Below, piece by piece: positions 1-2,082 of a DNA stretch of 2,082 nt. The first letter of the stretch is position 1; each line of letters begins with the position of its first letter. Made by a program: the position numbers and the translations under genes. The stretch lies in assembly GCF_003334765.1 (NCBI RefSeq), contig NZ_QOWT01000074.1; one strand, 5' to 3'. A model generated the notes under the pieces. It saw only the letters and a program-made list of their open reading frames with translations, did no database searches and was not told the DNA's origin. This DNA comes from Escherichia coli. Its GTDB lineage: Bacteria > Pseudomonadota > Gammaproteobacteria > Enterobacterales > Enterobacteriaceae.

Positions 1-123
1 TATGGGACGAAATAAGGCAGCGGCAATACCTGGAAAAATTTAATATGGTATGAAGGAGAACCTGTCGGTTACGCTTAATATACACGGTACACTGTCAGCT
101 CAGGGGATACATGAACCGTTATC

Positions 124-324
124 TCACCAGCTACACAGTATACACACACTGACGCTGACAGTAGTCAGCAGGACCACAATAATCAGCGCCAGCAGTATGG
201 TAACGATACGGTCTGTATTCCGGTAGTAGCCGAAGGGGTCGACAGAACCACAATACGGGCAACACACTGTATTATGAGTAATCGCGTTTCCACAGTCCCT
301 GCACTTCTTTTTGCGTATCACCAT
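124..324 (-). CDS. Small zinc-ribbon protein with a C-terminal transmembrane helix (about 66 aa), function unknown
   Basis: ORF track 124..327 (-). The translation has a CxxC-x9-CCxxC zinc-ribbon pattern (CRDCGNAITHNTVCCPYCGS) followed by an uninterrupted hydrophobic stretch (IVTILLALIIVVLLTTVSVSVCILC), consistent with a single-pass or tail-anchored membrane protein. On the minus strand an AGGAGG Shine-Dalgarno (plus coordinates 335..330) sits 5 nt upstream of the ATG at 324..322, so I prefer the ATG at 324 over the GTG at 327. Not assigned to a named family. Confidence 0.6.
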   Translation of the reverse strand: MVIRKKKCRDCGNAITHNTVCCPYCGSVDPFGYYRNTDRIVTILLALIIVVLLTTVSVSVCILCSW

Positions 325-327
325 CAC

Positions 328-523
328 TCCCTCCTCACAGCCTTACCCGTAACCGGTTTTTTACATTAAAAAAACAACGCTGAAAATTCAACCGTCAGTC
401 CGGAGACGACCGTTCGGGTTATCACAGAGTGCCTGAGACAGTGTCCTGCCGGAGGTCACTTCAGGGACTCTGCGCATTTTTTACGACGTGGCTATTCCGT
501 ATGAACCATACGGAGATTTAACC
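328..523. promoter_or_regulatory. Divergent intergenic region, presumably carrying promoters for the minus-strand small gene and the plus-strand YagK/YfjJ-like gene
   Basis: 196-bp non-coding gap between two divergently oriented start codons. It contains an AT-rich palindrome (356..375) and a perfect 7-bp inverted repeat at 497..513. I found only weak sigma70-like hexamers (for example TTTACA at 360..365 on plus; TTGAAT/TAATGT on minus at 391..386 and 368..363), so no precise promoter is called. Confidence 0.3.
497..513 (+). promoter_or_regulatory. Perfect inverted repeat CCGTATG-aac-CATACGG overlapping the Shine-Dalgarno of the downstream gene
   Basis: Read directly: 497..503 CCGTATG, loop 504..506, 507..513 CATACGG (exact reverse complement). 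The GGAG at 511..514 is the likely Shine-Dalgarno for the ATG at 524 and lies partly in the 3' arm. Confidence 0.3.
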
Positions 524-1093
524 ATGACCTACAAATACAACCCCTTCTGGCAGCAACGTATTCGTGAGACGGTGCGGCACGCACTGAATGTTCATCCCCG
601 CCTGACGGCATTGCGGGTTGACCTGCGTCTCCCGGATGTACCGGCAGCAACGGACGCAGCTGTGATATCCCGCTTCATCAATGCCCTGAAAGCCCGAATC
701 GACGCTTACCAGAAACGTAAGCATCGGGAAGGTAAACGCGTGCATCCCACAACCCTGCATTACGTCTGGGCCCGGGAGTTTGGGGAGTGCAAAGGTAAAA
801 AACACTATCACCTGATGCTGCTGGTCAACCGGGATACCTGGTGTCGTGCCGGTGATTACCGCGCTCCGGAGTCTCTGGCCGGGATGATTAAACAGGCGTG
901 GTGCAGTGCCCTGGGAGTGGATGTCGGGTGCCATGCCACGCTGGTGCATTTCCCGGCCTGGCCGGCGGTGTGGCTGGAACGCGATGATGACACTGGCTTT
1001 CAGCAGGTGCTGGAACGTGCTGACTATCTGGCGAAGGAACATACCAAAGCTCACTGCACCGGTGAGCGCAATTTTGGCTGTAGCCGGAGTTGA
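524..1093 (+). CDS. YagK/YfjJ family protein (Pfam 'Inovirus Gp2'-like), putative replication-initiation or nicking protein of a mobile element
   Basis: ORF track 488..1093 (+). I recognise the overall sequence character (N-terminal MTYKYNPFW..., HYVWAREFGE, KKHYHLMLLVNRD) as the YagK/YfjJ family found in E. coli cryptic prophages CP4-6 and CP4-57; this is from memory, not a search. HYHLMLL at 803..823 resembles an HUH-type motif. Start preferred at ATG 524 (GGAG at 511..514, 9-nt spacer) rather than GTG 488, which would add 12 residues and place the 497..513 palindrome inside the coding sequence. Stop TGA at 1091..1093. Confidence 0.8.
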   Translation: MTYKYNPFWQQRIRETVRHALNVHPRLTALRVDLRLPDVPAATDAAVISRFINALKARIDAYQKRKHREGKRVHPTTLHYVWAREFGECKGKKHYHLMLLVNRDTWCRAGDYRAPESLAGMIKQAWCSALGVDVGCHATLVHFPAWPAVWLERDDDTGFQQVLERADYLAKEHTKAHCTGERNFGCSRS

Positions 1094-1169
1094 GCACGAC
1101 TGGCGCGCCAATACCCGGCAAACCAAAAGTATGGGTTGTTGTCTGGCGGCAACGATGTATCCACTCGCC

Positions 1170-1193
1170 CACTGACTGTTTTTTACGTCAGTG
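1170..1193. repeat. Inverted repeat CACTGAC-N10-GTCAGTG with a T6 run in the loop
   Basis: Read directly: 1170..1176 CACTGAC pairs with 1187..1193 GTCAGTG; the loop 1177..1186 is tgttttttac. It lies in the 253-bp gap between the YagK/YfjJ-like gene and the first Cys-rich gene. The T-run is inside the loop, not 3' of the stem, so it is not a canonical intrinsic terminator. Confidence 0.3.
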
Positions 1194-1346
1194 TTCCATT
1201 GTGTGACAACCACAGTGCTGTAACAGCAACCAGCCTGCTTTACCCAAACTCCAGTCCAGATTTTAACTGAACCGCCATTCACACCCTGACCACGCTGCCC
1301 GTACCGGGACGGCTGTTGCCTGCGTGTCGTCTGGCGGCTGAGGTAT

Positions 1347-1754
1347 ATGACTATGTACGCAAAATCCTTTATCGCTCTTGATGGCAACGGACGTCTGACG
1401 GGCGCCCGTACTGCACAGGCCGCACCTTATGCTAACTACACCTGCCACTTGTGTGGCAGTGCACTCAGATACCATCCGCAATACGAAACTGAACTTCCCT
1501 GGTTTGAACACACTGACGACAGGCTGACAGAGCACGGTCAACAGTGCCCTTATGTCAGGCCGGAGCGCAGAGAAATACAGTTGATTAAACGTCTGCAGCA
1601 ATTCGTACCGGATGCCTTACCCGTGGTGCGTAAAGCCAGCTGGCACTGCAGACAATGTCACCACGATTATTATGGGGAGCAGTACTGCACACACTGCCAG
1701 ACCGGAGGATTCAGTATTCCCCGGACAACTCAGGAGGAAATATGCGAATTCTGA
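1347..1754 (+). CDS. Cys-rich putative zinc-ribbon protein (135 aa; paralog A of a tandem pair), function unknown
   Basis: ORF track 1347..1754 (+). Conserved pattern C-HL-C-GS...PWFEH...C...W-H-C-RQ-C-xx-DYYGE-xx-C. The CxxC-x14-[W/H]F[A/E]H spacing recalls the N-terminal zinc ribbon of CoiA-like competence proteins (CxxC...HFAH); that is a motif-level resemblance only. GAGG at 1340..1343 is 3 nt from ATG 1347 but 9 nt from the in-frame ATG at 1353, so the true start may be 1353. Stop TGA at 1752..1754. Confidence 0.65.
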   Translation: MTMYAKSFIALDGNGRLTGARTAQAAPYANYTCHLCGSALRYHPQYETELPWFEHTDDRLTEHGQQCPYVRPERREIQLIKRLQQFVPDALPVVRKASWHCRQCHHDYYGEQYCTHCQTGGFSIPRTTQEEICEF

Positions 1755-2082
1755 ACTGTTATATGGCGAATGACAGCAAAGGCCATTTTGTTACGGCGAA
1801 AGAAGCTGCGAAGCACAACCGACAGGACGTTTTGTGCTGTGTGTCCTGTGGATGCCCGTTAACACTTCAGCGGGGCAATGACGGACAACCACCGTGGTTT
1901 GAACATGACCAGATGACTGTCGCTGAAAAAATCCTGCTGCGATGTACCTGGCTTGACCCGGCAGAGAAAGAGGCCCGTCGTTTGCATCTGCAGGGCATGA
2001 CGGTTCCGGATTATACGGTGAAGGTGAGAAAGTGGTTTTGTGTGATGTGTGACGAAGATTATGAGGGGGAAAAGTGCTGCCC
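1742..2082 (+). CDS. Cys-rich putative zinc-ribbon protein (paralog B; 3' end truncated by the window), function unknown
   Basis: Translating by hand from ATG 1742 gives MRILNCYMANDSKGHFVTAKEAAKHNRQDVLCCVSCGCPLTLQRGNDGQPPWFEHDQMTVAEKILLRCTWLDPAEKEARRLHLQGMTVPDYTVKVRKWFCVMCDEDYEGEKCC..., open to the window end. It aligns with paralog A at A-x-D-x-x-G-x-x-T-x-A-x-x-A, CxxCG, PWFEH, VPD...VRK, W-x-CxxC-xx-DY-x-GE-xx-C. AGGAGG at 1732..1737 precedes the ATG. The start overlaps the 3' end of paralog A by 13 nt in a different frame. An alternative in-frame ATG lies at 1763. Confidence 0.6.
   Translation, partial: MRILNCYMANDSKGHFVTAKEAAKHNRQDVLCCVSCGCPLTLQRGNDGQPPWFEHDQMTVAEKILLRCTWLDPAEKEARRLHLQGMTVPDYTVKVRKWFCVMCDEDYEGEKCC

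Follow-up and report, generated by a model that had tools for sequence, protein, structure and literature searches.

Among described proteins, those combining a short zinc ribbon, i.e., Zn_Ribbon_1 (PF13240), Zn_ribbon_3 (PF13248) or DZR (PF12773), with a transmembrane (TM) helix come close in layout to the small protein studied here. Its gene lies in a 2,082-nucleotide stretch of Escherichia coli DNA (contig NZ_QOWT01000074.1 of assembly GCF_003334765.1), hereafter the window, i.e., the whole stretch that was analysed. These proteins and the small protein are alike in two N-terminal CxxC knuckles about 10 residues apart, in basic residues and in the single TM helix. Most members of the families carry an extracytoplasmic domain after the helix, whereas the small protein stops at the helix end. 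No function has been assigned to the families, so what can be learned from them is a shape rather than a mechanism.

In topology, the nearest comparison is with C-tail-anchored proteins. ElaB and YqjD are bacterial C-tail-anchored inner-membrane proteins. Proteins of this kind work by keeping a cytoplasmic partner or activity at the membrane, and the same mechanism is proposed below for the small protein. C-tail-anchored TssL, of the type VI secretion system of enteroaggregative E. coli, has the same predicted topology as the small protein, with a negligible periplasmic tail (PMC3426401). Such proteins are unrelated to it in sequence and have larger cytoplasmic domains, none of them a zinc ribbon.

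The type I toxins, i.e., Hok/Gef, Ldr, TisB and Ibs, are like the small protein in size, in the single helix and in their location in mobile or accessory DNA. However, the helix of these toxins is the conserved effector and they are controlled by antisense or overlapping RNA, whereas the conserved part of the small protein is the predicted cytoplasmic Cys4 ribbon and its gene has no conserved antisense promoter. The cysteine residues of the Hok family are periplasmic (PMC12648545). Holin and lysis cassettes have endolysin or spanin neighbours and a charged C-terminal tail. Both are missing at the small gene, whose product ends in hydrophobic residues. As a locus, the closest described cases are yagK and yfjJ of E. 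coli K-12, in CP4-6 and CP4-57, which are likewise P4-integrase-type islands with AlpA and YfjI-like genes. The K-12 genes have no adjacent zinc-ribbon/TM gene, whereas the small gene goes only with a 189-amino-acid YagK-like subfamily of Escherichia islands.

The small open reading frame (ORF) is a genuine coding gene under purifying selection. The length of the ORF is no argument for coding here, because an ORF of 289 amino acids runs antisense to the neighbouring gene in the same window. Selection was examined codon by codon in seven divergent copies, taken from complete E. coli genomes and from assemblies encoding variant proteins. In the annotated frame, codons 1-39 gave a pN/pS of 0.22 (pS 0.49, pN 0.11) when all pairs of the seven copies were summed. 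Of the five alternative frames, four gave values of 0.82-1.54. The fifth, an antisense frame, gave 0.28 but has at least two stops in each copy, and its low value is expected from codon-position complementarity. Third codon positions make up 29 of the 52 variable sites. Because third positions vary freely, what is constrained in the N-terminal domain is the protein rather than the DNA. Pairwise Nei-Gojobori dN/dS in this domain was 0.02-0.32, with dS from about 0.3 to more than 2. A previous model-made reading of the window, i.e., the sequence-only reading, had proposed a real small protein gene, and this agrees with the selection seen in the annotated frame. The reading frame and its cysteines were also found to be kept in related islands, and no alternative conserved gene was found on the other strand, where the antisense frames are not conserved. 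The plus-strand ORF at 50-226 and the other antisense frames were rejected as real genes, as they contain stops in most variants and the upstream half of the former lies in DNA that is non-homologous between islands. Some copies are damaged, i.e., one copy (L003) is frameshifted and two matches (H27 and H50) have no coding sequence (CDS).

The 66-amino-acid sequence is MVIRKKKCRDCGNAITHNTVCCPYCGSVDPFGYYRNTDRIVTILLALIIVVLLTTVSVSVCILCSW. In the mechanical ORF list the start was placed one codon further upstream, at a GTG at 327. The sequence directly 5' of the ATG on the minus strand is GAGGAGGGAGTG, also given as TGAGGAGGGAGTG. The Shine-Dalgarno (SD) sequence is strong and unsequestered, and it is purine-rich in every variant compared. 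The near-consensus AGGAGG noted before, 5 nt upstream of the 66-codon ORF, was thus present as described. An inverted repeat of 9 nt, at 254-262 and 343-351 (TACGGGCAA / TTACCCGTA), was also observed, in which the leader just upstream of the SD could pair with codons 21-24 of the small gene. In this repeat the pair 259/346 is changed on both sides in one variant (L015) and broken in another (L012), in a small sample.

The N-terminal part of the protein is predicted to form a zinc ribbon. Its motif reads C8-x2-C11-x9-C21C22-x2-C25 over residues 8-25, literally as the sequence-only reading had described for a putative cytoplasmic ribbon. Among 13 family members, C8, C22 and C25 never vary and C11 is conserved in at least 90%. 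In an alignment of 19 sequences including remote relatives, no columns other than C8, C11, C22 and C25 are invariant. A natural variant (P0008) has Y at position 21, and the remote relatives lack C21. Because of this variability, the zinc ligands are probably C8, C11, C22 and C25, and C21 is probably not a ligand. The conserved cysteines, i.e., two CxxC knuckles with a short spacer (C8xxC11-x10-C22xxC25), have the pattern by which zinc ribbons are recognized. Sequence matches in the PDB were generic ribbons only, at E ≥ 5e-4, i.e., RNA polymerase subunit P, a reverse gyrase finger and Nop10. In NCBIfam nothing was above the cut-offs, the best being rubre_like_arch with 16.6 bits against a cut-off of 32. 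An origin of the small gene as a duplicate of the C-terminal ribbon of a neighbouring Zn_ribbon_11 gene was considered and rejected. With BLASTP the shared part was CCPxCG alone, at E 0.02 as calculated for one comparison.

The hydrophobic C-terminus is 25-27 residues long. The best 19-residue window, at residues 40-58, has a mean Kyte-Doolittle value of 2.99 and is followed by eight residues, and the N side of the helix carries seven K/R versus three D/E. In all seven copies the best windows have means of 2.8-3.0, the N side has K+R of 5-8 versus D+E of 2-4, and the tails are 1-8 residues long. A single C-terminal helix, a short tail and a positive N side, i.e., the marks of a tail-anchored protein, were therefore found in every copy. 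AlphaFold2, run on a 13-sequence alignment, placed a helix at residues 35-65 with a predicted local distance difference test (pLDDT) score above 90. Hydrophobicity, positive-inside bias and this model all point to a single C-terminal hydrophobic helix with a cytoplasmic N-terminus, as was first suggested from the letters, and an N-in, tail-anchored topology in the inner membrane is predicted. The helix evolves fast. Its dN/dS was 0.2-0.55 within the classes described next, i.e., purifying selection, and 0.45-1.96 between them, with hydrophobicity retained.

The homologues fall into at least three classes, in which the N-terminal 39 residues are near-invariant and the helices differ. The classes are A, IVTILLALIIVVLLTTVSVSVCILCSW; B, IFTALLALLVVVLLVTSAVSMYVLW; and C, LLCLLTLLLVLILVTVSGVSVFVLLP/Q. 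Class C has ATC in place of the ATG and retains the purine-rich SD; the start of this class is likely a GTG at codon 2. In a profile search of 1.84 billion cluster representatives, 25 proteins were found at E ≤ 1e-10, all of Escherichia type and many of them frameshift variants. Below that level only marginal matches (E 1e-6 to 1e-3) to other small proteins of the same layout were obtained. Several of these remote look-alikes share the pattern C-x2-C-x10-C-x2-C-[SN]-S-x-DPFG followed by a basic stretch and a TM helix. When the remote relatives were compared with Pfam Zn_Ribbon_1 and Zn_ribbon_3, 6 of 19 matched at E ≤ 0.001, the best at 2e-6 to 4e-6. PHROGs gave weak matches only, to families without assigned function that have an N-terminal ribbon and a TM helix (phrog_38187, E 2e-5, and phrog_10292). 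Two of the look-alikes, both with the CxxC-x10-CxxC-S-x-DPFG-basic-TM pattern, were observed inside transfer clusters, on the opposite strand in both cases. One (P0147, L016 5001-5219) lies between TraG_N and TraH of an F-type tra cluster, and the other (P0143, L018 5001-5237) near DotM_C of a Dot/Icm-like cluster. These two may belong to a broader family, made up of small ribbon-TM proteins carried by conjugative elements.

The small protein is already annotated and uncharacterised, i.e., an ordinary, well-supported hypothetical small protein and not a new kind of system, and no result of the analysis suggests an unusual mechanism. The NCBI annotation pipeline (PGAP) and RefSeq call the exact protein as WP_001297219.1, "hypothetical protein" (100% tblastn match to an annotated CDS), and in a spread sample of E. 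coli records a CDS was annotated under the match in 35 of 40. The proposal that gene callers would often miss such a gene was not upheld by these annotations. Other sources name the protein "zinc-ribbon domain-containing protein" or "predicted nucleic acid-binding Zn ribbon protein". The best-matching genome is 99.6% identical over the whole window. A 421-bp piece, i.e., the gene with the intergenic region, was found in 3,655 of 5,426 complete E. coli genomes, about two thirds. It occupies 7,357 places, with a median of two per genome and up to six, and all but five places are chromosomal. Eight plasmid records were matched, several of which are megabase replicons. Among 50,697 phage records, the only match was a fragment of 20 residues, located where one 4.5-kb record ends. 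When GTDB species representatives, one genome each, were scanned with the family alignment, no occurrence was found in any species' own sequence.

The small gene sits in a regulatory or replication-like region of Escherichia tRNA-associated genomic islands. The location in a mobile element, anticipated by the earlier reading, was found to be correct, and so was the divergent arrangement with a YagK/YfjJ-like gene. In all nine loci examined (eight Escherichia and one Salmonella assembly) the local order is the same, i.e., the YagK-like gene and two Zn_ribbon_11 genes share a strand, and the small gene is transcribed away from them on the other. In most loci a gene of the Hha/YmoA family is convergent with the small gene, 270-345 bp past its stop. 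Further out, AlpA, a protein of 190-200 amino acids, YfjI (DUF3987), a YeeP-like GTPase and Ag43 are encoded. The order in the island is AlpA, then Hha-like, the ribbon-TM gene, YagK/YfjJ-like and the two Zn_ribbon_11 genes, and the island also carries toxin-antitoxin modules such as CbtA/YeeU.

The pairing with YagK/YfjJ is not general. The divergent neighbour is a PF11726 member and shares 38-40% identity with YagK and YfjJ of K-12. In the K-12 loci searched, i.e., next to yagK and yfjJ and in KpLE2, no homologue of the small gene was found. A scan of GTDB species representatives with a YagK-family alignment gave 30 loci. The small gene is absent from the 28 loci of other species, including those with YagK-like orthologues of 66-69% identity. 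These closest orthologues belong to Hafnia paralvei, Tenebrionibacter, Siccibacter, Superficieibacter and an Enterobacteriaceae metagenome-assembled genome (MAG). Both Zn_ribbon_11 genes are kept there, and upstream of the orthologues neither the small gene nor another ribbon-TM ORF was found. As the trio of YagK-like and two Zn_ribbon_11 genes is kept without the small gene in other genera, the trio is the conserved core, and the small gene with the Hha gene is an Escherichia-clade addition at the core edge. The small gene is an Escherichia-clade accessory and not an obligate partner of YagK/YfjJ.

From these features, we propose that the product is a lineage-restricted, tail-anchored inner-membrane ribbon protein that acts as a tethering or sequestering module. 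This proposal is given about an even chance of being right, and the confidence rests mostly on its structural part. A basic cytoplasmic domain of about 39 residues would be built around one predicted Cys4 zinc ribbon (C8, C11, C22 and C25). The single C-terminal helix would hold the ribbon at the cytoplasmic face of the membrane. The conserved ribbon would be the working surface and the helix mainly an anchor. At the membrane, the ribbon may bind a partner and tether or sequester it. Either a protein or a nucleic acid could be this partner, encoded by the island or by the host. Permeabilisation of the membrane would be a less likely mode of action. The reading as an anchor plus a binding module is drawn from the finding that the ribbon is nearly frozen while the helix is free to change if it stays hydrophobic. 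The coding status, the motif, the hydrophobic tail, the synteny and the distribution are established here, and from there on we infer that the protein is expressed, binds zinc, takes the predicted topology and works as a tether.

Several results weigh against this proposal. Pfam searches with the query gave only sub-threshold matches, the best being zf-ChsH2 (E 0.014) and Zn_ribbon_3 (E 0.092). On the shallow 13-sequence alignment, AlphaFold2 gave pLDDT below 50 over residues 1-34 and was uninformative on the ribbon fold. In the helix, the invariant positions 44, 47, 52, 59 and 63 are no more clustered than 15% of random subsets, i.e., the evidence for one conserved face did not reach significance. 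On the minus strand, the search for a sigma-70 promoter gave nothing convincing, and the best candidates agree at 7-8 of 12 positions; the weak candidates are TTGAAT-17-TAATGT at 391-363 and TTCATA-18-AAAAAT at 505-476. The presence of the trio without the small gene in other genera weakens the idea that the small protein acts on the trio. Fast helix evolution is also compatible with a toxin, since many membrane toxins tolerate hydrophobic substitutions. In the literature, a search by accession, peptide strings, Pfam names and YagK/YfjJ gave no relevant mention of the protein.

A rival reading takes the protein as a small membrane-damaging effector, whether like a type I toxin, like a holin or active in abortive infection. 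The helix would oligomerise and depolarise the membrane, and the ribbon would have a sensory or regulatory part. This view is suggested by the small size and single helix of the protein and by its location in a mobile island with CbtA/YeeU-type modules, and small membrane toxins are common in mobile elements (PMC12648545). Inside the small gene there is an antisense promoter-like site, CTGACA-17-AATAAT at 155-183 on the plus strand, with 10 of 12 matches. However, this site is lost in other variants and about one such site is expected by chance, with two promoter-like sites found in the region versus a shuffle mean of 0.8. A type I-like antisense RNA from this site was rejected, a chance match being probable. 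No toxin or holin family was matched in Pfam, NCBIfam or PADLOC-DB v2, where the four locus proteins, i.e., the small protein and the operon partners, gave nothing at E ≤ 0.1, and Rfam gave nothing for the window at E ≤ 1. The neighbours, i.e., Hha-like, YagK-like and Zn_ribbon_11, are not lysis genes, and the protein ends inside or just past the membrane without the charged tail typical of holins. The helix, which should be the effector part, is the least conserved part, and this pattern argues mildly against a pore-forming role. In addition, up to six copies per genome, mostly intact and with a strong SD, are present with no cognate antitoxin visible. An effector is therefore considered unlikely. 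Quite unlikely, on balance, is an exclusion or immunity factor of the island that would keep related elements, phages or conjugative DNA from entering or becoming established. The look-alikes P0147 and P0143 inside conjugative or type IV secretion clusters, the weak match to phage proteins with an N-terminal ribbon and a TM helix (phrog_38187) and the splitting of the helix into classes, as often seen in specificity determinants, would fit such a factor. Yet these remote similarities are marginal and are to proteins without known function, and a tail of 1-8 residues leaves minimal periplasmic exposure. The gene is also essentially absent from phages and true plasmids, and no transfer machinery stands beside it in the islands.

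Finally, the ORF could be a young, dispensable orphan without a cellular role, or a decaying one, that persists only through its linkage to the conserved control region of the YagK-like operon. Its confinement to Escherichia-type islands is in line with this, as are the many frameshift variants among the 25 representatives, its absence from the scanned GTDB species representatives and from beside the orthologous trios of other genera, and the damaged copies L003, H27 and H50. An orphan is nevertheless very improbable, because codons 1-39 are under purifying selection at a synonymous divergence of about 0.5, with third positions varying freely, which a constraint at the nucleotide level cannot explain. 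Moreover, hydrophobicity and reading frame are maintained across the three helix classes, and most of about 3,650 genomes have an intact, annotated gene. The bolder extension of the tether proposal is that the ribbon on its tether is a new kind of membrane-anchored regulator, which would capture a DNA-processing protein of the island and so gate replication, excision or silencing, with the helix classes preventing cross-talk between co-resident copies. The captured partner could be the HUH-like YagK/YfjJ protein, a Zn_ribbon_11 protein or the adjacent Hha/H-NS silencing complex. This extension is a long shot.

The gene has a meaning beyond this window. About two thirds of sequenced E. coli have it, often in several copies, and it lies in the part of the large tRNA-associated islands that is least understood; these islands also hold Ag43, CbtA/YeeU-type modules and Hha paralogues. 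Selection on the protein is clear, yet no function is assigned, and the same holds for the YagK/YfjJ-like protein and both Zn_ribbon_11 proteins. Should the ribbon indeed bring a partner to the membrane, the regulation of these islands would become more accessible to study, and the bacterial small membrane proteins would gain a zinc-binding example. In a 2025 review of small membrane proteins, the word "zinc" does not occur (PMC12648545). The features of the window are listed in Table 1.

Table 1. Coordinates of the small gene, its parts and the surrounding features in the 2,082-nucleotide window
Feature	Position	Strand	Remark
CDS of zinc-ribbon/TM protein, 66 amino acids	124..324	-	ATG 324-322, TGA 126-124; identical to RefSeq WP_001297219.1
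Codons 1-39, basic N-terminal domain, predicted cytoplasmic	208..324	-	two predicted zinc knuckles C8xxC11 and C22xxC25 (nt 303-250) and invariant GYYRxTDR linker
Codons 40-66, C-terminal hydrophobic helix (predicted tail anchor)	127..207	-	few residues at most beyond membrane
SD sequence AGGAGG	330..335	-	5-nt spacer to ATG; extended form GAGGAGGG at 336-329
Divergent intergenic region, 199 bp	325..523		highly conserved; A/T-rich core 355-392; plus-strand promoter-like site 360-387; inverted repeats
YagK/YfjJ-like protein gene, 189 amino acids	524..1093	+	PF11726 "inovirus Gp2 family", HYHLMLL motif; divergent neighbour, ATG at 524
First of two paralogous Zn_ribbon_11/DUF7828 genes	1353..1754	+	downstream of YagK-like gene
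Second Zn_ribbon_11/DUF7828 gene	1742..2082	+	overlaps first by 13 nt; runs off window
Variable spacer downstream of small gene	1..123		toward convergent Hha/YmoA-family gene in most islands

In the intergenic region, which includes the 5' leader of the YagK-like gene, p-distances between copies were 0.01-0.16, compared with about 0.49 at synonymous sites of the small gene and 0.06-0.37 at those of the YagK-like gene. Because the region is more conserved than the synonymous sites of either flanking gene, shared regulation of the two divergent genes is plausible. Co-regulation from this region had been suggested before on the basis of the divergent arrangement. The conservation would favour that part of the suggestion, whereas the pairing with YagK/YfjJ did not hold across taxa. 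A perfect 8-bp inverted repeat, TCCGTATG-AAC-CATACGGA at 496-503/507-514, overlaps the SD of the YagK-like gene. One variant (L002) has a 5-nt insertion in the loop of this repeat with the arms kept. A 12-nt inverted repeat is found at 425-436/461-472. Taken together, the two repeats may serve as an operator or as a hairpin acting on translation. No terminator-like site was found past the stop of the small gene.

The variable spacer was compared between island variants. Over window positions 1-140, homology to six other variants (L002, L008, L010, L012, L014 and L015) ends at the stop codon of the small gene, and the spacer toward the Hha-family gene is unalignable between helix classes. The small gene therefore marks a mosaic boundary.

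Matches in assemblies of distant taxa were also observed. The only small-gene match in the scan of species representatives was a 683-bp E. coli-like contig in the Paenibacillus tengchongensis assembly, evidently contamination. Contigs 92-94% identical to the E. coli module were found in assemblies labelled Paenibacillus tengchongensis and Collinsella MAG, and near-identical YagK-family matches in "Citrobacter sp. 18056" and "Chryseobacterium sp. 18061". These matches (L025, L046 and L027/L028) likely come from contamination or cross-assignment in public assemblies.

The YagK-like protein has the HUH-like motif KKHYHLMLLV, and HYH is found also in YagK and YfjJ of K-12. Weak matches were obtained to PF23343 REP_ORF2-G2P and to phrog_2969, "replication initiation protein". 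These sequence features hint at a rolling-circle Rep/relaxase-like nuclease. The trio (window 524-2082, compared with L020-L024) is conserved across genera, with identities of 64-69% and 48-50%. In Hafnia (L020 1928-3904, minus strand) and Tenebrionibacter (L021 1929-3899, minus strand), a protein of 656-658 amino acids is encoded divergently from the YagK-like orthologue. Its N-terminus, KSVAVKNFRCY...GRNDIGKSTIL, looks like that of an OLD/AAA-type ATPase, and its gene occupies the position that the small gene has in Escherichia. Within the trio, the ATG of the second Zn_ribbon_11 gene lies inside the end of the first, whose stop codon is at 1752-1754, and this overlap suggests translational coupling of the two genes.

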